Under the pieces are notes generated by a model, which did no database searches, was not told where the DNA came from, and saw only the letters and a list, made by a program, of their open reading frames with translations. A program made the translations under genes and the position numbers. Below, piece by piece: positions 37,204 through 53,152 of a stretch of 53,996 bases of DNA (within the stretch, counting starts at the first letter, position 1; every line of letters starts with the position of its first letter). The stretch is from an uncultured Syntrophomonadaceae bacterium. GTDB taxonomy: Bacteria; Bacillota; Ch66; Ch109. The stretch is from assembly GCA_964556555.1 (NCBI GenBank), contig CAZKWP010000002.1:3313-57308 (forward strand). The letters are read 5' to 3'.

Positions 37204-37737
37204 TCAAATGCCAATGAGTCTCTGAGCCAGTTGCTGGGCTAATATTTGAGGCAGAAGATCCCGGTTTTCCGGGGTAACCGTGCGAAGCTCCACTTTTGGA
37301 TGATTTCTGATTCGATCAGTCCAACCTTTGCTGGCCAGTTTTACAACCCCTAAAACTGGTGTGCTGCCATTCAGCGTATCGATAACTTCCTGATGAAAAA
37401 CCAGGGCGTCCCGCTCCAGGCCGCCGCACTCATCCATCAAAATCAAGCCGGAACTGGTTCTGGCGGACCTGATCAGTTCAACACCGCAAATGTCAAACTT
37501 CTGCGTAAAGACCTGGGTTGGACGTCCTCCGGCAAAACGCGCAACCGCATTTTCTTCCCGGAAAATCTTTGGCTTGGCGAAAGAATTCATATACAGCATT
37601 CTATCGGGTGCGTCTCGGTCCGGGCCGAAGTAGGTTTTAAAGCCTCCGATGGTTATCTTCAACAGAGAAAGAGTTTTGGCAATTACCGTGCTTTTCCCAA
37701 CTTGTATTTCACCAGTTAGAAAAATATGCATCTGCAT
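37204..37737 (-). CDS. THEP1/NTPase-family P-loop nucleoside triphosphatase
   Basis: MQMHIFLTGEIQVGKST (Walker A) and LILMDECGGLE (Walker B-like). 177 aa. ATG follows AAAGGAGAT. Confidence 0.6.
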   Translation of the reverse strand: MQMHIFLTGEIQVGKSTVIAKTLSLLKITIGGFKTYFGPDRDAPDRMLYMNSFAKPKIFREENAVARFAGGRPTQVFTQKFDICGVELIRSARTSSGLILMDECGGLERDALVFHQEVIDTLNGSTPVLGVVKLASKGWTDRIRNHPKVELRTVTPENRDLLPQILAQQLAQRLIGI

Positions 37738-37909
37738 ACAGATCTCCTTTGATTTCGAATATTCCCGCTGTTTCATGTTTCATAGATTTATTGTCAACGT
37801 AAAACCGGGCACTTTACGTCATTTTAGGCAATATGGACCGGAAACTTCAACAGTTTTGTAAAGAAGGTGATCGTCATTCTATGTTCTTTCGAATTCTCAG
37901 TAAGGTCAA

Positions 37910-38638
37910 TCAAATAATGTACAGCCACAGCAGGCTTGCGCTGGCCAACACTACCCCGGTCTGCCAACAGTAATCTAGTTTCTTTAATCTTAATTTTCGC
38001 ATATAAGTTCTCTGCGGCAAGGCCCGAAAAGCCCGCGCTTCCATGGCTACAGCCATTTGTTCGGCCCGGTGGATTGCTCCGGAAATAATCGGCAGCATAA
38101 TAAGCGTATAGAGCTTCAGTTTTTGAACGACAGAAATTTTTTGCAGCTCGGTTCCCCGCATCTGCGCCGCATAATATACATTCAGGGCCTCTTCCCGTAA
38201 AAGAGGCAAAAAATGCAGGCCAACCATAACCATGAAAGCTATTTCATAAGGAATCCTCCATTGCACCAGGGCCAGCAAAAAATCCCGTTCCTGGCTGCTG
38301 AGCAGAACCATGGCTGAAATGATAATTATTATAACCCGCAACATTACCGCCAGCCCCATGTTCAATCCCACGTCGGTAATTATTTTGATCCCGTATACGG
38401 TCAGCAATGGCACTCCCGCTCTTGTAAATATACACTGCACCAAAAAAAGCACTGCCAGCAGGGGCAGTATTTTGCGCAGAGTCTGGCTGGCCCTTTTTAG
38501 GTCCGAGCCCACCAAATACAGCATCAGGATACTGAACAGAAGCAAAAACACCAGCCAGAGCGGCTTCTGATATACCACGGCCAGCGCAGAAATACAGATG
38601 ACCATCAGCAGTTTACTGCGGAGATCAAGGTCTCGCAC
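37910..38638 (-). CDS. ECF transporter transmembrane (T) component, EcfT/CbiQ family
   Basis: Multi-TM protein with the MAVAMEARAFR coupling-helix motif typical of EcfT. GTG at 38638 lies 6 nt after GGGGGAG. It overlaps the upstream ATPase gene by 34 nt. Confidence 0.75.
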   Translation of the reverse strand: MRDLDLRSKLLMVICISALAVVYQKPLWLVFLLLFSILMLYLVGSDLKRASQTLRKILPLLAVLFLVQCIFTRAGVPLLTVYGIKIITDVGLNMGLAVMLRVIIIIISAMVLLSSQERDFLLALVQWRIPYEIAFMVMVGLHFLPLLREEALNVYYAAQMRGTELQKISVVQKLKLYTLIMLPIISGAIHRAEQMAVAMEARAFRALPQRTYMRKLRLKKLDYCWQTGVVLASASLLWLYII

Positions 38639-39318
38639 CGCTTTCTCCCCCTTTGATCCTCGATTGCCCGGCCATCCTCCAGACGGATGACCCAATCTGC
38701 ATAGGTTTCAATAAATTTAGTCTGATGGCTTACGAAAATCACTCCGTACCCGTCTGCTTTAATCCTCAGCAGATAATCTCCCAAAAGCTCGCGCCGATAG
38801 GGATCTAAGCCGGCAGTAGGTTCATCCAAAATTACATAACGCGGGTGCGCAGCCAAAATTGCAGCAAGCATCAAGCGCTGTTTTTCTCCCTGGCTCAGGT
38901 TCTGGGGGAAATTTTTGCGATAGCCGGACAGTTCAAAGTAATCCAGGTAATAATTTATCCGACTCTCTATTTCTTCCTGGCTCAATCCCATATTGGTCAG
39001 TCCATACGCAACTTCATTCTCAACGCTCGTACAAAAAAGCTGCTGCGAAGGGTTTTGAAAAACATAGCCGATCTGGCGGCCAATTTCCGCCAGACTCATT
39101 TTACGGATATCGTTTCCGCCCAGGCAGACACACCCCGTGCTGGGCCTTAAGATGCCCACCAAAAGCTTAGTCAGGGTCGTCTTGCCGCAGCCATTGTCTC
39201 CAACTAGGGCGACGATTTCTCCGGGCTTAAAACATAGATTTATCTTCTGCATTACCGCTTGTCGGTTCCCCGGGTAGGTATAACCGAGATTTTCCGTCTC
39301 CAAGAACATATTTCCCAC
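38605..39318 (-). CDS. ECF transporter ATPase component (EcfA-type ABC ATPase)
   Basis: Walker A GDNGCGKTT, signature LSQGEKQR and Walker B YVILDEPTAGLD. The start is GTG 39318 or ATG 39309. Confidence 0.8.
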   Translation of the reverse strand: MGNMFLETENLGYTYPGNRQAVMQKINLCFKPGEIVALVGDNGCGKTTLTKLLVGILRPSTGCVCLGGNDIRKMSLAEIGRQIGYVFQNPSQQLFCTSVENEVAYGLTNMGLSQEEIESRINYYLDYFELSGYRKNFPQNLSQGEKQRLMLAAILAAHPRYVILDEPTAGLDPYRRELLGDYLLRIKADGYGVIFVSHQTKFIETYADWVIRLEDGRAIEDQRGRKRCETLISAVNC

Positions 39319-39367
39319 TTCTTCCCGGTTGATTAATTGGCGGCTGCCAGCATACCAGCATTGGGAC

Positions 39368-40831
39368 TTATTGACAAATTTGGCGGCTAGACATCGGTTT
39401 TTGCTCCTTTAAAATCGCGTAACGATCGATTTCCTTCACCAGTCCATCGCCTTCCCGGTCATAGGCGTATGCCTGGTACACAAGTCGATTCCCCTCAATT
39501 TTAATTCCGGCAAAAACCGGTTCATCGTTGTCGTCCGGCTCATAGACCGCTTCCGGATAAACCTGGACCGTACTGGATATTTTTCGCGACCCAAACTGGC
39601 TGCCGCTAACGTTGGGGATTATATAGGTCGTACCGGGCGGATTCACCGTAAAATCAATTTTTTCGCCCGCAAAATTCTCGATGCTGCGCTTAGGCTTTTC
39701 AGGCAGCGGGACTACCATCCCGGCTGCTGATTTTGCCAGCACCGCCGAACGCATGTAAACATGGTCATGGCCCTGTAAAACGAGATCAATGCCCAGATCG
39801 CTGATAAGCGGCGCTAACTGAGCGCGCAGGGCAATGATGTCTTCACTGTCCATATGTCGTCCAAAGCTGTAAATGCCTCGGTGCATCAGCAGTATTTTCC
39901 ATTCTATCCCCTGCCGGTCAGCCAGAGCCGCGGTGTTTTTCAACCATTCAACTTGCCGCCCGCTTATTTTTCCATCGCCATTCTGGTAGCCTTCATTCGT
40001 GTTCAACACGAGGAAACAGGTATTCCCGTAATTTACGGCATAATAAGCTCCCGTATCTGTATCGGCGCCGACTGGCGTCAGTTTGTCCAAGGCAAAATGG
40101 CTGCTAAAAACCTCCCGGGTCTGATCATGATTTCCCGCAACCGGTAGAATGGTGGTATTCATTAGTTCCGTTTGGGCAGCCGCAAAAAAATTCTGCCACT
40201 CCGCAAAATTCTCAAAGCTGCCTTCGCTGCTGTAGCTTTGGACAAAATCCCCCAGATAAATCAGGAAATCGGCCTCTGGTACGGTTTGCATTGCCATACG
40301 CAGCGTCTGCGCGCTCAGCCTATAATCCGGCTCATCTACTCCCTGGCTGTCCGCCAGAATAACAAAATCGAAGTCCGCCTCCGGGGGAGCGGTATGAAAG
40401 GTCCCCTTTGCGCTCCAGACCCCCCGTTCAGCATCGCCTACTTTATAGGCATAAGTGGTATCGGCCTTAAGATCCGCAAGGGTTAAACGATGTACGACAA
40501 CCTGCTTTACGAGCGGTTTTCTGCCGGTATACCGTTTTACCGCAGCGCTTTTTCCCTGATAAAGCCTGGCCTTGCTAATAACATTTGCCTCGTTTATATT
40601 TACCTCGATTATCTTATCTTCGGCTATGTCTTCTTCGGCCAGGAGCAGATCGCTGGCGCATTGCGCGTCCGTATACCAGGTAAAACCTCGGCTGCTTTGC
40701 CCATCACCGTTAAAAGTAACACTGATACAGTACGGGACAAAACGTCCACTGCCCGATCCATAAGCAGGGTTTAACGAAAATATAAAAACAATCATCAGGA
40801 TGATGGCAATGGTTTTTAAACCGCGAAACAT
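39368..40831 (-). CDS. Secreted calcineurin-like metallophosphoesterase with a purple-acid-phosphatase-type N-terminal domain
   Basis: Signal peptide MFRGLKTIAIILMIVFIFSLNPAYG. The N-terminal FN3-like part has FTWYTD...YAYKVGD...GTFHTAP. Metal motifs: ILADSQG, LGDFV, AGNHD, LMHRG and QGHDHVY. ATG at 40831 follows GGGAGGGTG. Confidence 0.75.
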   Translation of the reverse strand: MFRGLKTIAIILMIVFIFSLNPAYGSGSGRFVPYCISVTFNGDGQSSRGFTWYTDAQCASDLLLAEEDIAEDKIIEVNINEANVISKARLYQGKSAAVKRYTGRKPLVKQVVVHRLTLADLKADTTYAYKVGDAERGVWSAKGTFHTAPPEADFDFVILADSQGVDEPDYRLSAQTLRMAMQTVPEADFLIYLGDFVQSYSSEGSFENFAEWQNFFAAAQTELMNTTILPVAGNHDQTREVFSSHFALDKLTPVGADTDTGAYYAVNYGNTCFLVLNTNEGYQNGDGKISGRQVEWLKNTAALADRQGIEWKILLMHRGIYSFGRHMDSEDIIALRAQLAPLISDLGIDLVLQGHDHVYMRSAVLAKSAAGMVVPLPEKPKRSIENFAGEKIDFTVNPPGTTYIIPNVSGSQFGSRKISSTVQVYPEAVYEPDDNDEPVFAGIKIEGNRLVYQAYAYDREGDGLVKEIDRYAILKEQKPMSSRQICQ

Positions 40832-40951
40832 CTTACACCCTCCCACCTTACACTCTGGTACCCCGAATTGTTAATAAGGGAAAACGCCAGCTAATAGCCG
40901 GAGTTTCCTGACTTATCGATACTGTTGCCGGAGGCAGCGGCCACCTGCCAG

Positions 40952-41050
40952 GCGCGGCATTTATCCGCTGGCTCCTTGGGCATTAAAGCGTAAGCCATTC
41001 CAATCAGCTGACGGTCAACTGACAAGCGCGGTTTTTATCCGCTGGCTTCC
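40952..41050. repeat. Two copies of a ~25-nt hairpin-forming direct repeat in the intra-operon spacer
   Basis: GCGCGGCATTTATCCGCTGGCTCC at 40952-40975 and GCGCGGTTTTTATCCGCTGGCTTCC at 41026-41050. Each can fold on the minus strand (GCGG..CCGC core). Confidence 0.7.
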
Positions 41051-41057
41051 TAAAAAA

Positions 41058-41798
41058 TCAGCCAAGATACAATCGGTGCCGCTGCAAAAATTTCGTATCT
41101 GCCAGCACCGCCGCCGGACTGTCCAGGCGGATCATTTCACCCTTTTCCATAACCATAAATATGTCCGCAAAATCAACGTTCTCCACATCATGCTCAACGA
41201 TAATCAGCGTTTTCCCCTCTTTACGCAAAGAAAACAGGATCTCGCGCACGAGACGCCGTCCTTTTTCATCCAGCTGGGCCATCGGCTCATCCAAAACCAG
41301 GATCGAGGGCTTAAGGGCCAAAACTGCACCGAGTGACAGCAGCTTTTTTTGCCCCCCGGAAAGTACGGTTGGATTTTTAAAGCGCAAATGATTGAGGCCC
41401 AGCAGATTAAGAATCCCTTCGACGCTTTCCCTTATCTCCTGTGGCGGCCGGCAAAGATTTTCCGGGGCAAAGGCAATTTCATCCTCCACCGTAGTGGTCA
41501 CCAGCTGAACATCCGGATCCTGAAAAACCAGCCCTATTTCCCCGGCCAGTTGGGGCAGTTTGTACGCGGTCGTCTCCCGGCCCTGAATCAAAACCCGTCC
41601 CTTCATATTCCCGCCCAGCACATGCGGCGCGATCCCGCAGAGACACCGGCACAGTGTCGTTTTGCCACAGCCGCTGAGACCGATTATCCCCACAGTTTCA
41701 CCGGCCTCTATAGAAAAATTAATCCCTTTTAATGCGGGCAACGCGGGCTGACCGCCTGGATAGACGTAACCTAAGTCTTCTGCCTTCACCGCCAGCAT
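41058..41798 (-). CDS. ECF transporter ATPase component (EcfA-type ABC ATPase)
   Basis: Walker A GLSGCGKTT, signature LSGGQKK and Walker B ILVLDEPMAQLD. Its ATG overlaps the upstream stop codon (TAATG). Confidence 0.8.
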   Translation of the reverse strand: MLAVKAEDLGYVYPGGQPALPALKGINFSIEAGETVGIIGLSGCGKTTLCRCLCGIAPHVLGGNMKGRVLIQGRETTAYKLPQLAGEIGLVFQDPDVQLVTTTVEDEIAFAPENLCRPPQEIRESVEGILNLLGLNHLRFKNPTVLSGGQKKLLSLGAVLALKPSILVLDEPMAQLDEKGRRLVREILFSLRKEGKTLIIVEHDVENVDFADIFMVMEKGEMIRLDSPAAVLADTKFLQRHRLYLG

Positions 41799-42340
41799 TA
41801 CTTAATCTCCAGTTCGTTAAGATATTTAGTCATCCGGTTGCCAAAGGGATCTGCCGCCAGGATCAGTCTAAAGGGTCCCAGTCCGCCCTCGGCCTTGCTT
41901 TTCAATAATTCGCCGTTCCGCTCATAAGCAATCAGCACCGCATCGGAAGCGATGATTTCCTTTGGGGTCAAAGCCGAAGTAAATCCATCCTCCGCCCGCG
42001 CCAGCACCTGTTCCGCATTCTGCAGCAGCTTTGGATCAGCCAGATCCAGCACATCCCTCATCGACGCTCCTCCCCAGACCTCCGTAGATTTACCCTCACT
42101 GGCCGAATGGATGGTCACCTTTTTCTCCACTTTGGGCAGAGCCTGGATATCATGTAAGGTCAACACCGCGATAACCTCTCCCTGGCTTTTAATGCCGATC
42201 ATTCCCGATCTAATCGACTCCTGGGGACGATTCAGAAAAGCCAGAAACAGGATTCCGACTGCCAAAATTAAGAGAACAATTGCGATAACCCCATATATTT
42301 TTTTATTTTTATTCCTTTGTTGGCGAGCAATCTCACTCAT
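41798..42340 (-). CDS. Membrane-anchored extracytoplasmic protein with one Cys-less SUOX/YedY-like (molybdopterin-oxidoreductase-fold) domain
   Basis: One N-terminal TM segment (IYGVIAIVLLILAVGILFLAFL). The domain pattern is W.G.S.RDVLDL...V.A.AEDGF...LIAYERNGELL....GLGPFRLI....N...KYL..LEI. No candidate Mo-ligand Cys is present. Confidence 0.55.
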   Translation of the reverse strand: MSEIARQQRNKNKKIYGVIAIVLLILAVGILFLAFLNRPQESIRSGMIGIKSQGEVIAVLTLHDIQALPKVEKKVTIHSASEGKSTEVWGGASMRDVLDLADPKLLQNAEQVLARAEDGFTSALTPKEIIASDAVLIAYERNGELLKSKAEGGLGPFRLILAADPFGNRMTKYLNELEIK

Positions 42341-42399
42341 TGCCGGCTCACCCCCCCTTTACGCAGTCGTTTTCCTTCCAGAGCTCCTCCTCCCGGGCT

Positions 42400-43008
42400 C
42401 TACTTCCCGAACTCAACTTCCTGGTCCTGCTTCCCAGGCTGATTGCCGGAGTCAAAATTAACTCCAATTTTATACTTGCGTAAAGCCTGTAAAACCTGCC
42501 AGGCCAGAATGCCCCCCAGACCTCCTGAAAAAGCAGCCGCACAGACTGATAACAGCAAGGGAAGCACCGGCAGCTGGAAGAAAATCAGATTTACTGTCAA
42601 AGTACCGGCCACGTTGGCCAGCATCCCCCCGATAAAACAACAAATCAGGCAGCAGGCCTTATGTCTGCCGATTAAGAAAAGCCCGGCGTCAACCGCCACG
42701 CCCGGCAACGTATAGCTCAGCAGGGACATTAGTCCGTGTGAACCGATTACCCCGGTCCCAATAACCATCAAAGCCTGTACCAGACCAATCAGGATCGCCG
42801 CACCATATTTACGGACCAGACCTAACCCCACTACCAGCCAGAACATGTAAAAGCCCCCGGCCAGCGAACCCCCTGGGATAAACAGGGGGCCGGTAATCAG
42901 GTGGGCCAGCGGCACGATAATTGGTTTGGTGGCGACCCCCAGAGCAGCCATTACGGCAATCAGTACCAGGTCATACGTGGAAAAACGGCGCATCATTTTT
43001 TGCAGCAT
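42400..43008 (-). CDS. ECF transporter substrate-specific (S) component-like membrane protein, specificity unknown
   Basis: 202 aa with about 6 TM segments, small and Gly-rich. It opens with RRFSTYDLVLIAVMAALGV, as many S components do. It lies in a cluster with EcfA/A'/T. ATG follows GGAGGAGGG. Confidence 0.6.
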   Translation of the reverse strand: MLQKMMRRFSTYDLVLIAVMAALGVATKPIIVPLAHLITGPLFIPGGSLAGGFYMFWLVVGLGLVRKYGAAILIGLVQALMVIGTGVIGSHGLMSLLSYTLPGVAVDAGLFLIGRHKACCLICCFIGGMLANVAGTLTVNLIFFQLPVLPLLLSVCAAAFSGGLGGILAWQVLQALRKYKIGVNFDSGNQPGKQDQEVEFGK

Positions 43009-43047: not shown

Positions 43048-43887
43048 CTATTCAACCACAATCCTTGAGATCAGGGATACCCATTTAAGCCGATTATACT
43101 CTCCGGCAAACTGTTGACCCATAACCAGGCGGAAGGGAGCTCCTTGGCTGGCTTCGTATTCCTGGCCGTCCTGGGACCAGGCGATGATCATGCGCAGCTT
43201 TTTGCTGCTGTCGGTTTCATCAAGATAGTCGGCCTTCAGGTCTTTAGGGCTAAAAACCTGAACATAACCGTCTTCAGCGATAACCCTTACCTGGCTGGCC
43301 GAATCCTTAAGACCCACCTTATCCGCCAACAACTCGTATAAAAGCACCCCGGTAAAATCATTGTGGCTGGCTTTGGCCCAGCCGGGCTTTTCTGCTCCGC
43401 GGGAAAAATACTTGGCTGTTACCGTGAGGTTTTTCATTTGCTTTAATTCATTAAGGGAATACTCCTGGCTGGTTTTAACCCCAGCCCCGGTGATTCTGAT
43501 TTTCGCCGGGTCCGCTTGTCGGTTTGCCGATGCAGCACCAGTCTTTCCTTTGGCTGCAGCATCCCCCGCACCAGCGCTGCCCGCTGAATTTTTATCCTCA
43601 CTGTCCTTAACCTCAGCTTTATCCTCATTAGTGTTAACCCCGGCCTTATCATCATTGGCCAAACCCTCATTAATCTTACCCCCGCCAATTACCTGATCAG
43701 CGCCAGCCGGCTTTTCTTCCGGCATGTTTGACACAGAATCTTCAGTCTCTGGAACTTCTCCCGGGACCTGAACCAGGCTGGTCTCAGGCCCTGATAGTTC
43801 GGTATTTTGGTCACCTGGCTTACTGCAGCCCCCGATGCTCAAAAGCATGATAAATAGCAAAAGCCATACTCCGGCTTTAAACCGCAC
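43048..43887 (-). CDS. Lipoprotein with a low-complexity linker and one C-terminal Cys-less SUOX/YedY-like domain
   Basis: GTG at 43887 lies 6 nt after GGGAGGG. Lipobox LLSIGGC. The linker is rich in D, K, A and G. The C-terminal domain reads FTGVLLYELL...VIAEDGY...GAPFRLVMGQQ...LKWVSLISRIVV. By eye it is about 40% identical to the C-terminal domain of the 1755-aa protein. Confidence 0.6.
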   Translation of the reverse strand: MRFKAGVWLLLFIMLLSIGGCSKPGDQNTELSGPETSLVQVPGEVPETEDSVSNMPEEKPAGADQVIGGGKINEGLANDDKAGVNTNEDKAEVKDSEDKNSAGSAGAGDAAAKGKTGAASANRQADPAKIRITGAGVKTSQEYSLNELKQMKNLTVTAKYFSRGAEKPGWAKASHNDFTGVLLYELLADKVGLKDSASQVRVIAEDGYVQVFSPKDLKADYLDETDSSKKLRMIIAWSQDGQEYEASQGAPFRLVMGQQFAGEYNRLKWVSLISRIVVE

Positions 43888-43973
43888 TGCATTCCCTCCC
43901 TTTTGCCCAAACATAAGCAGCCATTCTTCCAAAAACATGTCTGCCTATCCAGATTCGTCTGCGCGGCGTACGG

Positions 43974-46900
43974 CTAATCTACCACAATTTCCTGCACAGA
44001 GTTAACCCAGTTTTGCCGGTTGAAATCCCCTTCATATTTTTGCCCCATTACTAGCCGAAACGGCTGTTTTGACGTGTACTTATACTCCTGATTATTCTGC
44101 GCCCAGGCAATAATCATTTCCAGCTCAGCGCGCGGCTTCGTCTCGTCTATATATAAACCTGAAATTTCTTCCATAGTATAAACTTTGGTCATCCCGTCAC
44201 TGGCAACCACCTTTATTTGGTCAGGATAGTTTTTCAGACCTATTTCATCCAGCAGCAGCTTATAAAGTGACACCCCGGTAAACCGGTCATGCTGCTGTGC
44301 TGCCCAGCCGGCTTTGGCTTTACCTCGGGAATAATAGGATTCACTTACTTGAATGTCGGTCATAGCCTTCAAATCGTCCAGGGTATAGACCCGTTTTTGG
44401 GTCAGAGCAGAACCCTTGAAAACGATAGTCCCGTCTTCGCCCTCCTGGTCGTAGTTATTGCCGGGCGAGGATTTTTCAGCCGGTACGATTGCCGTATTCT
44501 CTTCCGCTGCCGCACTGCGCTCATCGAGAAAACCAGCGGTCCTCAGTAAGGCAGCCACCATGACCGCAGCTTCAGCCCGGCTGGTTTTATCCTGGGGTGC
44601 GAAACTCCCGTCAGCCCGGCCCTTTATGATACCGGCCTGCACCGCCGCGGCCACCGCTGGAGAAGCCCAGGCCGCGATCCCTGGCTGGTCGTTGAATCGG
44701 GATAGAATCTGGTCCCTTTCTGCCGCAGCCAGTTCGGTTTTTACCCCGGTCAACTGCAGGGCATTGACCAGCATTACTACGGCTTCCTGCCGGCTGATGT
44801 TTTGCTGCGGTTTAAAGGTGCCGTCTGCCATACCGTTAACGATTTTCCCCTGAGCCGCAGCGCCGACACTGCCCGCATACCACTCTTTTCCGCTGATGTC
44901 GCTAAAAAGAACTGCTGGCTCTGCTTGGTCTGTTAAACCTAACGCTCTGGTCAGCATGGCCGCAAATTCAGCTCTGGTTGTCGGGCCGTTCGGCTCAAAT
45001 TCGCTGCCGCTTTTTCCATTCAGCATCATTTTGGAGGCCAGCATCTCTACCTCCGTTTTCGCCCAATGGCTCTGCATATCCGCAAAAGCTTTGCCGCCGG
45101 AAACAACGGCGTAGACGCTGTTACTCAAGCTGTAGGCCCGGGCATAGGTCTGACCATTGCGTTCAATAAAAACGGCCGGCACGACCCGGGGGGTGTTGCC
45201 GTTCTCCTCCCAGCACAAGACCGTCCCCTGAGCCGGAATCAACTTGGCATTCAGCGGCAGGTCTCTAAATATATAGGACGAAAACTCACTGATCTTGATT
45301 TGTTTTTCCCCGGTCACGCAGAAAATTTCCGTACTCATTGGAACACTGTGCAAACTGTAATCATCCGTTAGGGAAGACATCAACTGATTCTTCTGCGCTT
45401 CTTCAAGCACCGTGCTCATTTTGAGCTGCAGCCGGAAATCAGTACTTCCGGCTTTTTCCGCCAGCCCCGTCAGATCCAGGGCCTCCGCCGGAATCACATA
45501 GGCCCCCTGGGCTATATTCAACTGCAGATACATCCCTTTTTCCTGCATCAGCGCCAGCAACTCACGGCTGATCTCCAGGACAGCGGCCGTCGCCTTTTCG
45601 GAAGCGCCAAACAGCAATACCGAACCATTTTCCGCTGCCAAAGCCGCTTGCTTAGCTTCCGGCTTTAGTTCAATCTTTTCTGTCCCGGCTCCATCTGTGG
45701 ATTTTTTAGCGTATAGCTCCATGTCTATACTCGGCTGATTTGGTAAAGCCGATAAATCCGCCGCGTTTTGGGTCGTCACCGCTGCGTCAGTCCTATAAAA
45801 TGGCCGTAACCCAAGTCCGCCGCCTCCACCGCCGCCAGATCCACCGGGAGCATCCGTTTTTTCCGTTACATCGTAAGCCAGAAAGTACTTCTCGTCCTGA
45901 TCCTTCAAGTCTCCCAAGCGAAGGGTCTTTTCCAGTTGGCCGCCGATAAGCAGCTCCGTTACATTTTCAAGCTTGCCGGCCACATAATAAAGCGTGACTC
46001 CACCCGCCGGGGCAGTAACAAAACTAACCGGATCGTTATCATCCAGGCCTTCGAAATCGTTTAGAAGACGGCCCAGGGATATCCCCTCCCCGGTATCCCC
46101 TTGCTGATTAAGCTTTTCCATTCCCTTCAACAGAAGGTCGGGGAGATTATAAGCCAATTTTTTAGCCAATCCACTTCCGGAAATACTGAATATGGGCGCA
46201 TTTTTATCGCCGATGACGATCTGCTGCACGTACTTATTGTTGTACTGGTTATTAAAATCCTCCCGGCTCGTCTGACCTAACATCAGGGTCGGCAAGGGGA
46301 ATTGCTCCACCTCAGTCAGTTCATCCGGGGTTGGCCGATGGGGGTTGCTGTCGTCTTCATTACTCTCCGCCCGATACAGGGCCAGGATGGGATCAATCGG
46401 ACCGCTTTCCCCATTATCACCCGGCAGCAGGTCAGCAAAGTAGTATCGCTGCGGTTCAAAACTTTTGCTGGATCCGTCGTAAGTAAGATCTACCCGGTTC
46501 GTGTCCGAACTGATTGTCTTAACCAGGCAGCGGTCGGTTCCAACTCCCGCCTGCTGCAGCAGCGCTCCCAGATCCAGGCCCTGGGCGCTGATCATGGTCT
46601 TAATCCCCCCTCGGGCTAAAACGGAATAAGTTCTGAATTCACGCTCAATCTTCGCCTGCTCACCGGCAGCAATACTTTCCAGTTCATCCACCGTAAAATA
46701 CATCAGCTTAGGAATACCGGTGCCGGAGATCACCAGTCCAACATCAATGATCCCAGTCGGTTCATCCTCTTTTTCATAGTATAGATTTATTACGTTATTT
46801 TCCGAGGCACCGGCGCTCAGACTAAGGCTGTCATTCTCCGCCCGGCTATATGCATAGCCGGCAACCTGGATTTCTTCATTGGCTGCCGCAATAATTTCCC

Positions 46901-49241
46901 CATCAATTCCCACACTGACTTTAGCCGCGGCTATCGCCTCTCCACTGGCCTGGTCCAAATAATTCACGGTATAGGCTGCCGGGTCCCCGTCGCCAACCAC
47001 AATCCCGGCAACATATTTGACACAGAGCGGTTTGGCGTTCTCCACGATCAGCCGCAGAGGGCCGTAACCGTTGTCCGCTTCCGCCGCGTAACCATCTGCC
47101 GGCTCAAGACTGTTCACCAAAGGATATCCATCCTTGGCATAGGCCAAAACTACTGGTTTGATCGCTCCGTTCTGCGTGGTGCTGCTGATCCCGGACCACA
47201 CATCGTCAACCGATAATTGTTTGGCAAATACGGATCCGTCAACATTAGGGCTGCATACCGTTATTTTGGCCGGCAGATCGTCGATTCCGGCTGCCTGCAA
47301 TAGATATTTAAGGTTTAGGCCCTCGTAATAGCCCATCACTTCTGAAGCCGCCAGATACTCTCGGACAATCCCGGCCTCCATCGCTTCTAACTTGCGCAGG
47401 GAATATACGGCTGGCTGTTTAAACGCACTGCCGCAGATTCGCAGAAAAGTTGTATCCAAATAAGAAGCGTACGGGGCTTCCCGGTCATGTTTCCAGCTCC
47501 TGGTCGCCTGAGCGGTTACCTTCACTTGGACAACCTGATCAAGACAACGCGCCGCGTCTCCATTTACCACCAGATACAGCGGCCCTCCGCTATTGGCAGA
47601 ACTCGCCGCGTAGCCTTGGTCCTGTTCCGAAGGCACCAATGGTTTACCATTCTTCCCATAAACCAGCATTACTTTCAGATCGCTGCTTTGCAGTTCGTCC
47701 AACGTAAAACTGACCGCGCTTCCATCCTGCGCAGAGACTTCGATCCGCTCCGTTTCCAGCTTCAGGCCTAATTTATCACTAGTCAGCAAACTGTAAAGAT
47801 TGATTCCACGGTAAACTGCCGTTTCCGTGCCAACTGTGTAACTATCCTCTTTTATCAGTTCCAGGAACTGTTCCAGATTTTCAACGGTAAAATCCTGGGT
47901 TACATTTAAGCCGTCACCGGTAAAGGTGATCTGATTGTTTTTCCATTGGGAAAAGGGTTCAGTCGTATGCTTACAGGTATCCGATACAATGTAAACATTT
48001 ATGCCGGTGCATTTCTGCACCAAACCCGATGACAAGTAGGTTTCATGCTGGGGCAGGGCAGCCAGCAGCGGACCATTTTCCTGCAGGGGTTCTCCATTTT
48101 GCGCATAAGCCAAAACCGGTTTTACCCAGCTAAGCTGCAGGCCCTCTTTGGTTGTATAGTAAGCTGAATAATCTTTACTGGGATTTAATATATAATCCAG
48201 ATTGAGGCGGCTCGATTCCTGCCCGTCAGCCTCTACAATACTGAACTCGCCTTCGTTGCCGGTTAACCCGAATTTCTCCGCCAGTAAATAATAAATATCA
48301 ATGCCTTCATAATAATTGGCAGCCGGATCGGGGTAATAATTGCGCGTCAGGGCGGCCTGCCTGGCATTGACCATTGCTTCAACTTCATTGACCGTATATG
48401 TTTCACTGTTCACCAATTCGGAAGTAGACGAATCTATCAGCTGGATCAACAGCTGATTTTCCGCATACTGGCTGTAGGGAGCACGGTCATGCTGAGTACT
48501 CTTAACATCATCGCCCACAACGATCTTGGTCAGCAATTTACTGTTGTACTGGGCATTGTTGCTACCGGGCGCAGTCTGACCAAACGTGATTTTTAGCGGG
48601 CCGCCGCCATTGGCATGTTCTTCAATCAATCCTGGAATACTGGTATCAAACCAGTCTTGAAAACCAATCGGCCCCACCAGGGGATAGCCGTTAGAGGCAA
48701 AAGCCACCATGACCGGCAGATTGTCCGCCTGGGATTCTCCCGCTTCATTATAGTAGTGGTATTGTTCGGTATGGCGAATAGCGCCCAGCGTATGCAGGGA
48801 ATTGTAGCCATCCTTGGCCATAATTTTAACTTCCGTGCTGTCTGGCAAGTCAGGATCCAGGCCTCCCTGCACCAGCAATTCGTAGAGACGCACTCCGCTC
48901 AAGGTATATGATTTATATTTCCCTTCACTGCCAGTAATGCTGTAGCTTACATCACAGCCAAACACTGGGTCCGCATAGAGGTTCTCCAGGTCTTTTACCG
49001 CATAAATCTTTTCTCCCTGTTGCATTCCTGAACCGCTTAGCGTAAGCGTGTCATACCGGTATTCCGGCTTGCCGTAATCTGAATCGGCGGGATAACTGCC
49101 ATGCCGGGGCTCATTATTCAGCGTCTGACTAATTTCTTGGCCGCTTGTCTCTCCAAAAAGCCCGTTCCCGGGTAAGGCCACCATGACCATGAGCAGACTA
49201 AGCAGCAAAAGCATTTTAAATACGTTATTTCTTCTCAGCAT
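43974..49241 (-). CDS. Giant secreted SLH-domain envelope protein with about 7 SUOX/YedY-like domains
   Basis: Signal peptide MLRRNNVFKMLLLLSLLMVMVAL. Repeated units of about 160-180 aa share the pattern [LY]..LL...G[LI]......[IV]...A.DG...NG.PL...GP[LF][RK]L. One MucBP-like segment is present (YTVNYLD...INLYYEKE), plus a G8 linker. Three SLH repeats (FADMQSHWAKTEVE..., FSDISGKEWYAGSV..., FNDQPGIAAWASPAV...) precede a final SUOX-like domain. ATG follows GGGGAGGGG. Confidence 0.7.
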   Translation of the reverse strand: MLRRNNVFKMLLLLSLLMVMVALPGNGLFGETSGQEISQTLNNEPRHGSYPADSDYGKPEYRYDTLTLSGSGMQQGEKIYAVKDLENLYADPVFGCDVSYSITGSEGKYKSYTLSGVRLYELLVQGGLDPDLPDSTEVKIMAKDGYNSLHTLGAIRHTEQYHYYNEAGESQADNLPVMVAFASNGYPLVGPIGFQDWFDTSIPGLIEEHANGGGPLKITFGQTAPGSNNAQYNSKLLTKIVVGDDVKSTQHDRAPYSQYAENQLLIQLIDSSTSELVNSETYTVNEVEAMVNARQAALTRNYYPDPAANYYEGIDIYYLLAEKFGLTGNEGEFSIVEADGQESSRLNLDYILNPSKDYSAYYTTKEGLQLSWVKPVLAYAQNGEPLQENGPLLAALPQHETYLSSGLVQKCTGINVYIVSDTCKHTTEPFSQWKNNQITFTGDGLNVTQDFTVENLEQFLELIKEDSYTVGTETAVYRGINLYSLLTSDKLGLKLETERIEVSAQDGSAVSFTLDELQSSDLKVMLVYGKNGKPLVPSEQDQGYAASSANSGGPLYLVVNGDAARCLDQVVQVKVTAQATRSWKHDREAPYASYLDTTFLRICGSAFKQPAVYSLRKLEAMEAGIVREYLAASEVMGYYEGLNLKYLLQAAGIDDLPAKITVCSPNVDGSVFAKQLSVDDVWSGISSTTQNGAIKPVVLAYAKDGYPLVNSLEPADGYAAEADNGYGPLRLIVENAKPLCVKYVAGIVVGDGDPAAYTVNYLDQASGEAIAAAKVSVGIDGEIIAAANEEIQVAGYAYSRAENDSLSLSAGASENNVINLYYEKEDEPTGIIDVGLVISGTGIPKLMYFTVDELESIAAGEQAKIEREFRTYSVLARGGIKTMISAQGLDLGALLQQAGVGTDRCLVKTISSDTNRVDLTYDGSSKSFEPQRYYFADLLPGDNGESGPIDPILALYRAESNEDDSNPHRPTPDELTEVEQFPLPTLMLGQTSREDFNNQYNNKYVQQIVIGDKNAPIFSISGSGLAKKLAYNLPDLLLKGMEKLNQQGDTGEGISLGRLLNDFEGLDDNDPVSFVTAPAGGVTLYYVAGKLENVTELLIGGQLEKTLRLGDLKDQDEKYFLAYDVTEKTDAPGGSGGGGGGGLGLRPFYRTDAAVTTQNAADLSALPNQPSIDMELYAKKSTDGAGTEKIELKPEAKQAALAAENGSVLLFGASEKATAAVLEISRELLALMQEKGMYLQLNIAQGAYVIPAEALDLTGLAEKAGSTDFRLQLKMSTVLEEAQKNQLMSSLTDDYSLHSVPMSTEIFCVTGEKQIKISEFSSYIFRDLPLNAKLIPAQGTVLCWEENGNTPRVVPAVFIERNGQTYARAYSLSNSVYAVVSGGKAFADMQSHWAKTEVEMLASKMMLNGKSGSEFEPNGPTTRAEFAAMLTRALGLTDQAEPAVLFSDISGKEWYAGSVGAAAQGKIVNGMADGTFKPQQNISRQEAVVMLVNALQLTGVKTELAAAERDQILSRFNDQPGIAAWASPAVAAAVQAGIIKGRADGSFAPQDKTSRAEAAVMVAALLRTAGFLDERSAAAEENTAIVPAEKSSPGNNYDQEGEDGTIVFKGSALTQKRVYTLDDLKAMTDIQVSESYYSRGKAKAGWAAQQHDRFTGVSLYKLLLDEIGLKNYPDQIKVVASDGMTKVYTMEEISGLYIDETKPRAELEMIIAWAQNNQEYKYTSKQPFRLVMGQKYEGDFNRQNWVNSVQEIVVD

Positions 49242-49295
49242 ATTGGCCCCTCCCCATGTTTCTTCGCTAAAACAAAATTAATTCCGCTTCTCAAA

Positions 49296-49330
49296 CGTCC
49301 TCCTGACCTTAAAAAAGGCCAGGAGGACGC
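49296..49330 (-). terminator. Hairpin between the two giant genes (terminator or attenuator)
   Basis: Minus strand reads GCGTCCTCCTGGCC-TTTTTTAA-GGTCAGGAGGACG followed by TTTGAG. It starts about 25 nt after the 1265-aa gene's stop. Confidence 0.55.
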
Positions 49331-49354
49331 AAGAAAACGGATTCTACCTTAATA

Positions 49355-52300
49355 CTATTGTTGTCCCAAAGCTCTGGCGATCACGGATACCGCTTCCGCT
49401 CTGGTCGCGTTCGCCTGGGGTCTGAAGGTCTGATCCGGATAACCCGACATCAGTTTAGCCGCAACGGCACTCGCTGCCGCATCCCGCGCCCAGGTTGCAA
49501 TGCTGCTGGTGTCGGTAAAATGCAATTCACCGGATTGGGCTGCTATTTTTTCTGCCCGCACGATCATCAAGGCCATTTGTTCCCGGGTAATCGGGTCATC
49601 CGGGCCAAACGCCGTGTCGCTGTATCCGGTTATAATGCCATTGGCAGCAGCGGTGGCAATCGCTTCCCTGGCCCAGTGGCTGCCCGTGTCCGCAAAAATC
49701 TTACCGTCCGTTGCGGTCAGTTTATAGGCTTTGACCAGTACCGTCGCAAATTCAGCTCTGGTAATCGTGTTGTCTGCTTTGAAGCTGCCATCTGGATAAC
49801 CGGTGATGGCTCCTGCGGCTACCAGGTTTTTAATGCTCGCCTCAGCCCAGTGACCCTTAATGTCGTTTAACTGACTCGGCTGAGTCGGTTGGGCTGGCTC
49901 GGTTGGTTCAGTTGGCTCGGCTGGCTCAGTCGGCTCAACGTCCTTATCCTTGCTGCTGCCGGAGCTGGACGAACCGCCACCTCCTCCGCCTCCCCCACCG
50001 GACGAGACTATTTCCAGACCTTCCGCTGCCGCCACTAAGACGTCAACGTCTTTGCCGGCCGGGGTATAGTCCGTGGCAGCAGACCCGGTTATATTTTCCC
50101 CGGTGCCGGGAATAATAATTTTGGCGTCGTTGTAGGTTACGGTCACCCGTTTACCTTCTGGTATATTGGTACTGGTCTTGGATTGGGTGTTATTGTAAGC
50201 GGCAAAATAATCAGCTATGTTTTTCGTTATATCTGTCTTGGTCCCATCGTTGGCTACCAGCTTAATCGTATATTTGCCGCTTAGGCCGCTGACCAAATCA
50301 CTTAGCCATACCCCGTTATATCGGTAGTACATCGGTCTTGAATAACCGTATGGAGGGGTATTAGCGTTGGCGTCAGGCACCTGTTCGCTCATGGCCATTA
50401 AATCAGTATAGGTGTAATTTGTCGTGGTTTTGCTTATGGCATTCTTTACATAAAAATAGGTGTCCTCGGTGTATTGGAAAGTTATGACCTGTTCTGCCGG
50501 CGCTCCGCTGCCCACGGTAATCAGTACCGGACTGGTCTGTCCGGCCGCTAAAGCGGCATTGGTGACTGCCGGTGCTTTGACCGCGTACTGCATGCCTGGA
50601 AGCAAACCTTTAAGGGTTAAGTCGTTTCTGACTTTTAAGGTTGGATTCTTGTCACTGACCGAGGTTACAACACAACCGTTTTTGCCGGATAACAGCGCAC
50701 CATCCGGGCTGATTACAACGCCCATCATATACTTCATAACTGCAGAATTGGCGCCGCCGGTATCTCTGTATACTCTTAAATAGCCGGAATTATTATCGGC
50801 ATCCTTAAATACCCCGGCCGGGTCGTTTACATTGTACGCATCAGGGTTTGCGTACTCTTCGTGAATTGCATACGTAACGATCGGACGCAGCGGATTTTTG
50901 GTGCTTCCGCTGCCGCCAATTGTTGATTTGGTTAAGCTTTCAATGGTGTCTTTATAATTTGAGTCAATGACGGCCGTTGCGGCGTCCGCATGATAACCGT
51001 CTTCCTCGGAATACTGGACTACCATATCCTCCGTAATCGACACGCCTTTTAAATCATTAAGCAAATCGGTTAATAAGGCTCCTTTACAGGTAACCGTTTT
51101 AATGACGCTGTGGTCATCATACGTGTAAGCCTCTTGGGTTTCGTAGGTCTCCAATTCCGCTTTCGTATAATAATAGTATTTTGTCTCGCCGGAAGCGTCC
51201 TTTAAGGCAATATAAAATACGGAATTATTGATATCTCCTCCTGGTTCCCGGTCACCCACGATACTTTCGGCTGTCCATTTTGCATAAAACTTAACATCAT
51301 CGACAATTGTGTACGGGAAGACAACTTGGTTGGTCAGTCCCGCATCGGTGTACCAGCCTTCAAGTTCAGAGCCTTCCTTGGTGGTCACTGGCGCTGTGTC
51401 TATCGTTGCGCCAGATACCCCAGTTATGCTGGCAACCGCAGTGCCGCCGTTTTCTTCAAAGCTTACCGTATAGGTCTGGCTTACCTCGTTAACTGAAGCA
51501 CCCACCACATTTTCAATTAATACCCTATCCTCGGTTTGCCCGGGGCAGTATATCCTTAAGGGGGTCAGACTGCCCGAAACCCGTTCGCTGCGCTCGCTGT
51601 CTGCAAAAGCGTCAAACGCCACAAAGCATCTGCTTATTTCGCTGGAACTGATGCTGCGGCTCGAAGCAACCGTTCCGCTGCCGTCATTAACCTTAATGAT
51701 CAAATCTTCATTGCTGGGAACCGTGACACCAAGTTCTGTCAATAAAACGCTCAACGGAACGCCGGTAACGCTCTGGGCAACCAGGGTGCCGCCGTTATTC
51801 CAGGAATACGAGGTTTCATAAATGCCGATCAGAGCGATATCCGACAAAGAGATAGATTTTGTATTGCTGTCCTGGGTAATTATAAAGGCGGGGTCAACCT
51901 TCCCAGCTCTGATTTTGTTCGTGTTTTTAACAAATTTGCAATTGGTTTCTTCGGTCGGTTCCGTTTGCCCATACGCAAATAAAGGATTGGCATCGGCTAT
52001 TGCTTCGGTTACGGTTGGAACTTCTAAACTGGAATCAGGGGTTGAGGTGGTTACTTTATCGTCATAAAAAATTAAAATCGGATCAACCACTGGGCCTACG
52101 GTCCCATCCGGAGCAATGTAATTGCGGCTCACGGTATGGCTGAAAGCATCACTGACTATAGCGGTGTAACCATCGGTTGCTGTCGCCTCAATCGCCACCG
52201 GTGCACTGTTCACATCTGCACCCAAGGCGGTCAGGACCGTCTTTAAATTGATTCCTTCCGCCAATCGATATACATATTCGGGCGTACCATGGTTATCATA

Positions 52301-53152
52301 GGATGAGTAAAGCATCGGGGTACTCGTCCACGAATCGCCCAAGCCCAGACCGTCTACGCTTTTATTCGCTTTGATCGAATCAACCTGATCCTGGCTGAGG
52401 TAAACAAAGCTGTTCCGCAATCCCGCTCCATTGGTTATTCCGGTTCCACCGATCACTAATCCGGTCTGATCAGGAACGAGCAGGTCTAACCCGGCGCCAT
52501 TATCAATAAGCTCCACCGCCGAACCGTCTGACTGGATTATCTGCAAGGAGCTGATCAAGCGCATATAGGTGGTATTGCCGAATCTGTCTATGGAAAAATC
52601 CCCGCCCCGGTTTCTCGCTATCCGACAATAAGTGGCCGGATAGGTCACCGACGGGTCAGTATCTTTGTATCCGACAGATGGTTCCGAGGTATCGTTTACT
52701 TTATGGGTCAACAGGTAATGATTGGCTGCGTAATCCTTCGCCTCAGCAACCGTAAAGGGAGCGTTGGTATAGGCATCACTGCAAACCGCTTTTATCTGAT
52801 AATCATCCGCTAAGGTTAGGTCGAGCGTGTCTTCTGCATCCGCTAAAAGGTCGGCCAATTTTATTCCGCAGCAGGTTTCGTGCAAGCCTTCATCATTTTC
52901 GGTATAAATATCAGATGTCGCCTGCCCCGCAAACTTATACCCCGTCGCTCCGGTAATATCCCCCCAGGTATACGGCAGGGTTTGCCCGCCTATCTCTACA
53001 TTTAACACCACGACATCGTTTGCTGGATCGGGTATCGGTGTCTGCAAAGTTTTGGCTTGTGCCGCCGGGGCTTGAACCAGCATAAAACTCAGCATAAACA
53101 TGATCAAAACTATACTGCTTATGTATTTTTTTAAGTTTCCGTTTCTAAGCAA
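49355..53152 (-). CDS. Giant secreted SLH-domain envelope protein with about 5 divergent SUOX/YedY-like domains and a Listeria-Bacteroides (Flg_new) repeat
   Basis: TTG start after GAGGAG. Signal peptide ...FMLVQAPAAQA. Divergent repeats have cores such as GINLKTVLTALG...ATDGY, GVPLSVLLTELG...NDGSG...PLRIY and GALLTDLLNDLKG...EEDGY. One YTVSFEENGGT...LEGWYTD...FYAKW repeat is present, plus a G9/S-rich and PTEP linker. Three C-terminal SLH repeats follow (IKGHWAEASIKNL..., TGSHWAREAIATA..., SSIATWARDAAAS...). Confidence 0.7.
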   Translation of the reverse strand: MLRNGNLKKYISSIVLIMFMLSFMLVQAPAAQAKTLQTPIPDPANDVVVLNVEIGGQTLPYTWGDITGATGYKFAGQATSDIYTENDEGLHETCCGIKLADLLADAEDTLDLTLADDYQIKAVCSDAYTNAPFTVAEAKDYAANHYLLTHKVNDTSEPSVGYKDTDPSVTYPATYCRIARNRGGDFSIDRFGNTTYMRLISSLQIIQSDGSAVELIDNGAGLDLLVPDQTGLVIGGTGITNGAGLRNSFVYLSQDQVDSIKANKSVDGLGLGDSWTSTPMLYSSYDNHGTPEYVYRLAEGINLKTVLTALGADVNSAPVAIEATATDGYTAIVSDAFSHTVSRNYIAPDGTVGPVVDPILIFYDDKVTTSTPDSSLEVPTVTEAIADANPLFAYGQTEPTEETNCKFVKNTNKIRAGKVDPAFIITQDSNTKSISLSDIALIGIYETSYSWNNGGTLVAQSVTGVPLSVLLTELGVTVPSNEDLIIKVNDGSGTVASSRSISSSEISRCFVAFDAFADSERSERVSGSLTPLRIYCPGQTEDRVLIENVVGASVNEVSQTYTVSFEENGGTAVASITGVSGATIDTAPVTTKEGSELEGWYTDAGLTNQVVFPYTIVDDVKFYAKWTAESIVGDREPGGDINNSVFYIALKDASGETKYYYYTKAELETYETQEAYTYDDHSVIKTVTCKGALLTDLLNDLKGVSITEDMVVQYSEEDGYHADAATAVIDSNYKDTIESLTKSTIGGSGSTKNPLRPIVTYAIHEEYANPDAYNVNDPAGVFKDADNNSGYLRVYRDTGGANSAVMKYMMGVVISPDGALLSGKNGCVVTSVSDKNPTLKVRNDLTLKGLLPGMQYAVKAPAVTNAALAAGQTSPVLITVGSGAPAEQVITFQYTEDTYFYVKNAISKTTTNYTYTDLMAMSEQVPDANANTPPYGYSRPMYYRYNGVWLSDLVSGLSGKYTIKLVANDGTKTDITKNIADYFAAYNNTQSKTSTNIPEGKRVTVTYNDAKIIIPGTGENITGSAATDYTPAGKDVDVLVAAAEGLEIVSSGGGGGGGGGSSSSGSSKDKDVEPTEPAEPTEPTEPAQPTQPSQLNDIKGHWAEASIKNLVAAGAITGYPDGSFKADNTITRAEFATVLVKAYKLTATDGKIFADTGSHWAREAIATAAANGIITGYSDTAFGPDDPITREQMALMIVRAEKIAAQSGELHFTDTSSIATWARDAAASAVAAKLMSGYPDQTFRPQANATRAEAVSVIARALGQQ

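Follow-up and report, generated by a model that had tools for sequence, protein, structure and literature searches.

What is an importer of the energy-coupling factor (ECF) type doing amid a set of cell-surface proteins that share the fold of a molybdoenzyme? The question is raised by a stretch of DNA of 53,996 nucleotides (nt) from an uncultured Syntrophomonadaceae bacterium (contig CAZKWP010000002.1, positions 3,313 to 57,308 of the forward strand), referred to below as the window. Within it, ten consecutive open reading frames (ORFs) on the minus strand, running from 53152 to 37204, combine a transporter with four extracytoplasmic proteins of the sulfite oxidase (SUOX) fold. The answer favoured here, with a confidence slightly above even, is that the operon is an envelope-spanning scavenging system for the pterin cofactor of molybdenum (Mo) or tungsten (W) enzymes. 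We infer scavenging because, in many relatives, a riboswitch for the molybdenum or tungsten cofactor (Moco/Tuco) turns this set of genes off. The operon probably represents the first system recognised in bacteria for drawing the Mo/W cofactor, or the pterin skeleton of that cofactor, from the surroundings.

The gene array

Domains were assigned by Pfam and NCBIfam scans of the window ORFs. The ten genes and the best promoter candidate are given below (aa, amino acids; SLH, S-layer homology; TM, transmembrane; Sec, general secretion).

49355-53152, minus strand: 1265-aa Sec-exported surface protein with SUOX-fold-like domains at about aa 40-560, Flg_new at aa 561-625 (Pfam 2e-12) and three C-terminal SLH repeats (Pfam 3e-43)
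43974-49241, minus strand: 1755-aa Sec-exported surface protein with five SUOX-fold-like domains at aa 63-1011, three SLH repeats at about aa 1390-1570 (Pfam 1.5e-38) and Oxidored_molyb at aa 1603-1755 (Pfam 1e-13)
43048-43938, minus strand: 296-aa lipoprotein with lipobox IGGC, a low-complexity linker and a Cys-free Oxidored_molyb domain at aa 144-296 (Pfam 2.2e-13)
42400-43008, minus strand: 202-aa ECF S component, PF09819 (Pfam 1.6e-13)
41798-42340, minus strand: 180-aa type-II membrane protein with an N-terminal TM helix and an Oxidored_molyb domain at aa 45-180 (Pfam 7e-13)
41058-41798, minus strand: EcfA ATPase, 246 aa (TIGR04520, 5e-60)
39368-40846, minus strand: 492-aa secreted metallophosphoesterase of the purple acid phosphatase (PAP) type, with Sec signal peptide, Metallophos (2.5e-14) and Pur_ac_phosph_N (2.3e-11)
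38605-39318, minus strand: EcfA' ATPase, 237 aa (TIGR04520, 1e-56)
37910-38638 (242 aa, GTG start) or 37910-38695 (261 aa), minus strand: EcfT of the CbiQ family (Pfam CbiQ 8e-27)
37204-37776, minus strand: cytoplasmic P-loop nucleoside triphosphatase (NTPase), 190 aa, PF03266 (NTPase_1, 1.8e-29)
53605-53633, minus strand: best candidate for a sigma-70-like promoter (TTGACA-17-TATATT, 11/12)

The initial annotation had described ten co-directional genes, and the ORF listing agrees with it. The TAATG overlap of stop and start was read directly at 41800-41796, where the 180-aa protein gene ends and EcfA begins. The 34-nt overlap between EcfA' and EcfT holds given a start of EcfT at GTG 38638, which has GGGGGAG ahead of it and agrees with the start of the CbiQ profile. 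The predicted promoter is preceded by the terminator-like hairpin of the upstream gene and followed by an AT-rich leader of approximately 450 nt (53153-53604) before the first gene of the array. No strong terminator was seen inside the array, and the remainder of the window contains only housekeeping genes, with none related to Mo.

A non-coding gap of 212 nt (40847-41057) separates the EcfA and phosphoesterase genes. At this position, four related loci (L004-L006, L013) carry an extra gene that encodes Cu_amine_oxidN1 together with Oxidored_molyb. A convergent gene of the window (34503-36941, plus strand) encodes an 812-aa protein in which an N-terminal Cu_amine_oxidN1 domain and a weak match to papain-like peptidases were identified; the same domain is fused to Oxidored_molyb in relatives.

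The ECF transporter and its S component

The membrane core of the array is a complete ECF-type ABC importer, as the initial annotation had claimed, with an S component (PF09819), two EcfA ATPases and EcfT all identified. The ATPases match ABC_tran at 2e-32 and 5e-29, and the E-values of both against TIGR04520 are below the equivalog cut-offs.

The AlphaFold2 model of the S component contains six TM helices, with a predicted local distance difference test (pLDDT) score of 89. Its best match in the PDB is the thiamine transporter component YkoE (5EDL; TM-score 0.71, approximately 22% identity), followed by ThiT, RibU and BioY. Identity among its relatives in Syntrophomonas, Pelotomaculum, Desulfotomaculaceae, Clostridium aceticum, Alkaliphilus and others is 55-90%. 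The family is small, with 309 clusters at E<=1e-3 and 44 at E<=1e-30 in a 50%-clustered library. S is a distinct, tightly conserved subfamily of PF09819. Membership of a family of known specificity with variable neighbours would have refuted the initial annotation; what was found is low identity to YkoE and conserved neighbours.

An invariant HxxCCxxC motif is present in the loop between TM4 and TM5 of S (residues 116-123, window 42640-42663). From the standard topology of S components, this Cys/His cluster is presumed to lie on the cytoplasmic face. A role in handling a metal or a dithiolene is conceivable.

A YkoE-like function in the uptake of thiamine or hydroxymethylpyrimidine (HMP) was considered and rejected because the riboswitch type is wrong. 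No thiamine pyrophosphate (TPP) riboswitch is present in the window or in the seven loci scanned with Rfam, and relatives carry the Moco riboswitch.

A Cys-free SUOX-fold domain at the cell surface

The envelope proteins of the array carry a Cys-free, PruR-like version of the Moco-binding fold of SUOX enzymes. The initial annotation had recognised one domain type in all four and had assigned it by eye to the SUOX/YedY fold; both statements were upheld. Pfam detects Oxidored_molyb (PF00174) in three of the four and misses the 1265-aa protein, and Pfam scans of the internal repeats of the two giants return almost nothing. The repeats were called with an iterated family hidden Markov model (HMM) and an independent hhalign test. 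The HMM identifies six copies of the domain in the 1755-aa protein (E 1e-12 to 3e-32) and four weaker copies in the 1265-aa protein. When the latter is compared with the small-domain profile by hhalign, residues 40-200 reach a probability of 96.6% and two further segments 89.7% and 84.2%; the fourth fails (2%). The C-terminal domain of the 1755-aa protein, located past its SLH repeats, is 43% identical to the domain of the lipoprotein.

The 180-aa protein was modelled by AlphaFold2 with a mean pLDDT of 93.6, using 64 homologues as input. A Foldseek search of the PDB gave 41 hits with E<1e-3; each of them is either a Moco domain of the SUOX family or a PruR protein, and none places the domain in an unrelated fold. 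The best are chicken sulfite oxidase (3e-8) and PruR (7KOS, 1.2e-7), with TM-scores of up to 0.75 on 7KOM. Comparison of the sequence profile with the PDB gives SorA (8e-5) and PruR (7KOM, 0.003; 7KOS, 0.016).

The catalytic Cys of the fold is missing. The 180-aa protein contains no Cys, and the only Cys of the 296-aa lipoprotein is that of the lipobox. The loss of the Mo ligand had already been claimed and stands; the position quoted for it is displaced, as the aligned column is two residues upstream, at Ser79 of the 180-aa protein, a shift that is immaterial. Ser79 aligns with the Mo-ligand Cys of plant sulfite oxidase (LQCAGN motif), and the equivalent position is occupied by Ser or Tyr in aligned domains of the family. 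Residue statistics were compiled from 313 domain instances in 90 loci. In the seven columns around the ligand position, Cys never ranks with the six most frequent residues, and none of the 313 instances has a Cys in the region. Conversely, a D-G-[YFW] motif is near-invariant (Asp in 289, Gly in 245 and an aromatic residue in 268 of the 313). In the 180-aa protein this is D118-G-F/Y120, which aligns with N-D-Y of 7KOM, the site of the N102 and Y104 pterin contacts of PruR. PruR is a secreted Cys-less SUOX-fold protein in which Tyr104 and Trp160 sandwich the pterin and Asn102 hydrogen-bonds to it (PMC11194511). It thus provides a solved precedent for the non-catalytic, ligand-binding role that the initial annotation had preferred.

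The proteins are anchored or exported by a TM helix, a lipobox or Sec signals. None of the window envelope proteins matches the consensus of the twin-arginine translocation (Tat) pathway, again as first reported. The 1755-aa protein starts with MLRRNNVF, in which the RR pair does not fit S/T-R-R-x-F-L-K. An RR-x-hydrophobic string occurs in just 8 of 261 ORFs, mostly from over-extended ORF starts. A reading as catalytic molybdoenzymes was rejected for want of both the Cys ligand and a Tat signal. The public annotation of the domain proteins as ‘molybdopterin-dependent oxidoreductase’ is probably a misnomer.

The NCBIfam entry NF041762 (‘GEGP motif-containing diheme protein’) matches residues 106-173 of the 1755-aa protein (E 1.8e-18) and a protein of Clostridium aceticum (L008 8858-9973). 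As these SUOX-fold-like domains contain no haem motif, the NF041762 family appears to include the SUOX-fold-like domain.

Conservation, gene order and gene fusions

One genome per GTDB species was scanned for relatives of the S component, which were found in 525 species genomes, and the best 80 loci were fetched. Locus counts refer to 89 loci, of which 57 have at least 5 kb on both sides of S. The linkage is not confined to the window genome and extends across Bacillota and some Actinomycetota. In 79 of the 89 loci a gene for this SUOX-fold domain shares the strand of S and is no more than 3 kb away from it, and 56 of the 57 loci with full flanks have such a gene somewhere.

Gene order was surveyed with queries derived in this analysis. 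The typical order is an optional FMN_bind gene, a SUOX-fold lipoprotein (approximately 370 aa), S, a phosphodiesterase, a small SUOX-fold protein (approximately 170 aa), EcfA, EcfA', EcfT, MobB and a kinase. The gene for the 180-aa type of protein is always directly upstream of EcfA. Variant loci add SLH proteins, ExbB/DUF2149, NapH-like/ApbE or TrmO-like/Se_S_carrier genes.

The gene combination is not only conserved but at times fused. Pfam confirms fusions of S to Oxidored_molyb (P0207, P0208, P0218, P0260) and of S to Phosphodiest (P0202, P0206, P0217). S is also fused to a SUOX domain in L082 and to a phosphodiesterase in L014 and L015, and EcfT is fused to Metallophos in L067, L081 and L082. 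In every fusion the added domain comes after an extra or terminal TM helix, and the fused phosphoesterase is located on the extracytoplasmic side of S or EcfT. The fusions imply that the transporter is functionally coupled to the SUOX-fold and phosphoesterase proteins.

An ExbB/MotA-like gene with DUF2149 is found beside S, flanked by SLH proteins, in Desulfofarcimen acetoxidans (L007 8965-9910) and 22 other loci; the pair is absent from the window. The pair may be a motor that runs on the proton-motive force and is coupled, in a monoderm, to capture proteins anchored in the wall. Syntrophomonas and Pelotomaculum variants (L004 15308-18402; L009 8185-9830; L030, L032) contain extra genes within the operon, encoding a cytoplasmic 245-aa protein without Pfam match, a TrmO/TsaA-like protein, Se_S_carrier and a class V aminotransferase. 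Their products may re-sulfurate or otherwise modify an imported compound.

Riboswitch control and the Mo/W cofactor

The substrate class is indicated by regulation. The Moco/Tuco riboswitch, RF01055, is directly upstream of the operon in all seven loci scanned with Rfam (59-88 bits), and also precedes adjoining ABC transporters of the TupA/ModA type. With a covariance model (R1) built from these RF01055 hits, a riboswitch was located upstream of the S-containing operon in 31 of the 89 loci, often in tandem or triple. In the Rfam alignments the P3 hairpin is deleted in three C. aceticum copies, and the other hits are of matching length. A class of Moco riboswitch lacking P3 was tied to the tungsten cofactor by Regulski et al. 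2008 (PMC2408646). The same study noted, as an unexplained exception, two such RNAs in Syntrophomonas wolfei before genes for a ‘putative Moco-utilizing sulphite oxidase’, and reported that Mo/W transporters are commonly controlled by Moco riboswitches (PMC2408646).

Most aptamers are followed by a hairpin and a U-run, as called by a permissive terminator detector. In the clearest cases the 5′ arm of the terminator is complementary to the 3′ strand of P1, GGAAAGGAG, which is a classical OFF arrangement. With this design, scarcity of the cofactor would turn the operon on, which fits an acquisition system. Tandem or triple riboswitches directly before ApbE and S genes are seen in L080 (8184-8660), with the same arrays in L016, L022, L041, L047, L055, L056, L061 and L071; these echo the triple array of S. 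wolfei (PMC2408646).

The genes in the vicinity have a similar bias. MobB, scoring above the TIGR00176 cut-off, and an APH/RIO-like kinase are found at the end of the operon in 25 loci, and a MobB was identified in L008. MoeA is near the operon in two loci, and transporters of the TupA/ModA type are often close by.

The window itself has no Moco riboswitch match at the Rfam gathering threshold, and the best hit of model R1 with filters off is 11.5 bits (E 0.82). The leader at 53153-53604 matches no Rfam family. Hence the cofactor link of the window operon is one of orthology, with riboswitch-controlled orthologues 55-60% identical in S and 25-35% in the small protein. The initial annotation had named a pterin-like cofactor, while calling the idea pure speculation. 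Of the possible substrate classes this one now has the best support, since Moco/Tuco riboswitches precede orthologous operons.

Two further riboswitch-associated clusters were noted in C. aceticum (L008). A Moco riboswitch lacking P3 (19017-19136) is upstream of a chelate-type ABC importer (Peripla_BP_2/FecCD), which is another candidate route for an Mo/W complex or cofactor. A cobalamin riboswitch (128.9 bits; region 2743-7269) precedes genes for a Metallophos-like protein, a 336-aa protein and a 737-aa DUF4901+SLH protein, possibly an analogous corrinoid capture system.

Phosphoesterases and cytoplasmic P-loop proteins

The metallophosphoesterase of the window has intact metal motifs (GDxxQ, GNHD, GHDH). 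The same slot of the operon is filled either by this Metallophos/PAP enzyme or, in other loci, by an unrelated PF01663 phosphodiesterase lipoprotein, both of which are extracytoplasmic. This is a non-orthologous replacement. At the end of the operon, the PF03266 NTPase occupies the place where most relatives have MobB and the APH/RIO-like kinase. It is found in the same position in L010, L033 and L040.

Proposed mechanism

In the scheme that we infer, which covers the ligand, the order of the relay, the direction of transport and the roles of the cytoplasmic proteins, the SLH-anchored multi-domain proteins would bind the pterin at the surface of the cell wall. From there it would be handed inward to the domain of the lipoprotein and then to the membrane-anchored 180-aa protein beside S. 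The secreted phosphoesterase, a metallophosphoesterase here and a lipoprotein of the nucleotide pyrophosphatase type in other loci, would trim the ligand of its nucleotide or phosphate to suit the binding domain or S. Hydrolysis of ATP by EcfA/A', acting through EcfT, would power uptake. The cytoplasmic P-loop proteins, NTPase_1 in this operon and MobB with a small-molecule-type kinase elsewhere, would return the pterin to cofactor assembly. Candidates for the ligand are Moco/Tuco, molybdopterin, and a pterin product that is either dephosphorylated or derived from a dinucleotide. That the whole sequence of capture relay, trimming, ECF import and re-activation by MobB/NTPase and kinase constitutes the first bacterial salvage of the Mo/W pterin cofactor is put forward tentatively, at somewhat less than even confidence.

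Several observations weigh against a scavenging system for the Mo/W pterin cofactor. Outside proteins, Moco is very labile. No riboswitch was detected for the window operon, and none was found in the loci of its closest Syntrophomonadaceae relatives, in which the first giant gene and the region upstream of it are missing or cut off, as the 10-kb flanks end inside the giant genes. The pockets of PruR-type proteins are truncated and likely too small for whole Moco (PMC13259868). The 180-aa domain is similarly small, and the ligand may therefore be a smaller pterin. The closest solved S component, YkoE, binds thiamine, and the capture model does not account for the invariant HxxCCxxC motif, predicted to be cytoplasmic. 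In 19 loci a flavinylatable FMN_bind lipoprotein is beside the SUOX-domain lipoprotein; a TGAT flavinylation motif is seen in 13 of the 19, and some loci have NapH-like and ApbE genes. This module points to extracytoplasmic redox chemistry beyond a simple capture model. Such chemistry might reduce the captured pterin, or the proteins might be true reductases.

Alternative explanations

The redox module is the starting point of one alternative, that of cofactor export. Here the ECF transporter would export Moco/Tuco, or flavin adenine dinucleotide (FAD), and load Sec-exported apo-proteins of the SUOX fold as surface reductases. These would receive electrons from FMN_bind, NapH-like and ApbE carriers. 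The analogy is with RibU-FmnA of Listeria, by which FAD is exported for flavinylation of the ApbE type. Such genes (FMN_bind with TGAT, NapH-like Fer4_5, ApbE) are in or beside the operon in a subset of loci, the Cys/His cluster of S is predicted on the cytoplasmic side, and ECF-dependent flavin export has a precedent (PMC9973259). However, no class of the domain retains the Mo-ligand Cys, and OFF riboswitches would silence the enzymes just when their cofactor became available. Nor is it obvious what a phosphoesterase outside the cytoplasm, joined to S or EcfT, would contribute to export, and the window operon lacks FMN_bind, ApbE and NapH genes. Export is considered unlikely. Just as improbable is a new ECF route for the metals themselves, as tungstate, molybdate or, in sulfidic habitats, thiometalates, with the SUOX-fold proteins as binders and the Cys/His cluster of S as metal site. 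Cbi/Nik ECF systems are known to have accessory components, the HxxCCxxC motif is invariant, TupA/ModA ABC systems adjoin, and Moco riboswitches commonly control Mo/W transporters (PMC2408646). A metal oxyanion would nevertheless be at odds with a fold and a D-G-Y motif that make up a pterin pocket, and would leave two unrelated families of phosphoesterase, conserved and fused to the transporter, without explanation. Moreover, S resembles YkoE, a component for an organic substrate, rather than the 7-TM CbiM/NikM with their N-terminal metal site, and dedicated Tup/Mod transporters are already there.

The organic nutrient could instead be a different one, either phosphorylated or linked to a nucleotide, such as a non-Mo pterin, a compound related to thiamine or HMP, or a flavin, with the Moco riboswitch reflecting indirect co-regulation. 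This too is given a low probability. In its favour are the thiamine-binding YkoE as closest solved S component, the ligands of PruR (monapterin and neopterin, not Moco), the window operon without a riboswitch, and the FMN/ApbE neighbours of some loci. Yet S is just approximately 22% identical to YkoE, the genomic context includes MobB, MoeA and TupA, and in the Rfam-scanned loci the riboswitch beside S is that of Moco and not of TPP, flavin mononucleotide (FMN) or tetrahydrofolate (THF). By far the least probable explanation is chance co-location, in which the surface proteins would belong to an S-layer or adhesion module that has nothing to do with the ECF genes among which it lies. Giant proteins with SLH repeats are common at cell surfaces, and most of the internal repeats are weak in or undetected by Pfam, but adjacency is kept in 79 of 89 loci across distant taxa. 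With gene fusions in existence, chance is effectively refuted.

Comparison with known systems

The scavenging system proposed here has partial counterparts. The YkoE-type ECF transporter of Bacillus subtilis (YkoEDC, 5EDL) shares with it a six-TM PF09819 S component and dedicated EcfA, EcfA' and EcfT in the same operon. It differs in that the relatives of the present system are under a Moco/Tuco rather than a TPP riboswitch, that extracytoplasmic SUOX-fold and phosphoesterase proteins are always present and sometimes fused, and that S carries HxxCCxxC.

PruR (7KOS, 7KOU, 7KOM, 7KP2, 7RKB) is likewise a small, secreted, Cys-less SUOX-fold protein, with N/D-x-Y corresponding to D-G-Y/F. Against the 180-aa model it gives a Foldseek E-value of approximately 1e-7, a TM-score of 0.63-0.75 and approximately 15-17% sequence identity. 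PruR is a periplasmic protein of proteobacteria, has a Trp at the Cys position and acts in signalling with a partner of the DcpA type that handles cyclic di-GMP (GGDEF/EAL) (PMC11194511). By contrast, the present proteins are anchored by TM helix, lipid or SLH repeats, occur in arrays of up to six, have a transporter as partner and carry Ser or Tyr at the Cys position. The SUOX molybdoenzymes (sulfite oxidase, SorA, YedY/MsrP) share the fold, G-x-P-x-R and a Lys near the C-terminus. They differ in possessing the Mo-ligand Cys, Tat signal, and dimerisation or haem domains that are missing here, and in a length of approximately 230 aa compared with approximately 135 aa.

In the Isd/NEAT haem relay of Gram-positive bacteria, wall-anchored multi-domain receptors, a lipoprotein and a transporter share one binding domain. 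A shared binding domain, here at three depths of the envelope, is common to both systems and, by analogy, suggests that the cofactor may be handed on stepwise through a thick envelope. Fold and ligand are different, as are the anchoring (SLH or lipid versus sortase) and the importer (ECF versus type II ABC with binding protein). Listeria RibU/FmnA with the ApbE-like FmnB (PMC9973259) also ties an ECF transporter to an extracytoplasmic cofactor, and some relatives of the present system encode ApbE and FMN_bind. The S component and the cofactor are different, and the riboswitch logic and phosphoesterases argue for uptake here.

Significance for Mo/W metabolism

Moco is generally regarded as a cofactor that cells must synthesise, and syntrophs, acetogens and sulfate reducers rely heavily on W/Mo formate dehydrogenases and aldehyde oxidoreductases. 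Cbi/Nik metal ECF importers already carry accessory extracytoplasmic components. The initial annotation had said that dedicated extracytoplasmic partners of an ECF importer, together with an S-layer-tethered multi-domain array, would be undescribed; given the Cbi/Nik precedent, this is correct for the kind of partner and not for having a partner as such. ECF importers themselves are known, and what is new is the pairing of one with proposed modules for capture and processing outside the cytoplasm, and its tie to the Mo/W cofactor. It has been reported that most organisms cannot take up Moco as a nutrient (PMC9026282), and no pterin transporter is known according to a 2026 review (PMC13259868). 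In the literature searched, no earlier description was found of an ECF transporter in a Moco regulon, of bacterial import or salvage of Moco or pterin, of the association of SUOX-fold domains with ECF transporters, or of PruR-like proteins in Gram-positives. A survey of flavinylation (PMC8238504) does not mention the SUOX-domain association.

If scavenging is the function, the operon would be a concrete candidate for cross-feeding of the Mo/W cofactor in anaerobic communities. It would also account for the ‘sulfite oxidase’ genes behind tungsten-type riboswitches in S. wolfei, the exception of 2008 (PMC2408646). The ECF paradigm would be widened to include modules for extracytoplasmic capture and processing, and the role of the PruR-type fold would reach past signalling. 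Should the fuller salvage scheme be true, the cofactor captured would be that released by other cells, and the system would represent both the first pterin transporter of any kind and the first ECF importer to work with proteins outside the cytoplasm that are dedicated to capturing its substrate.

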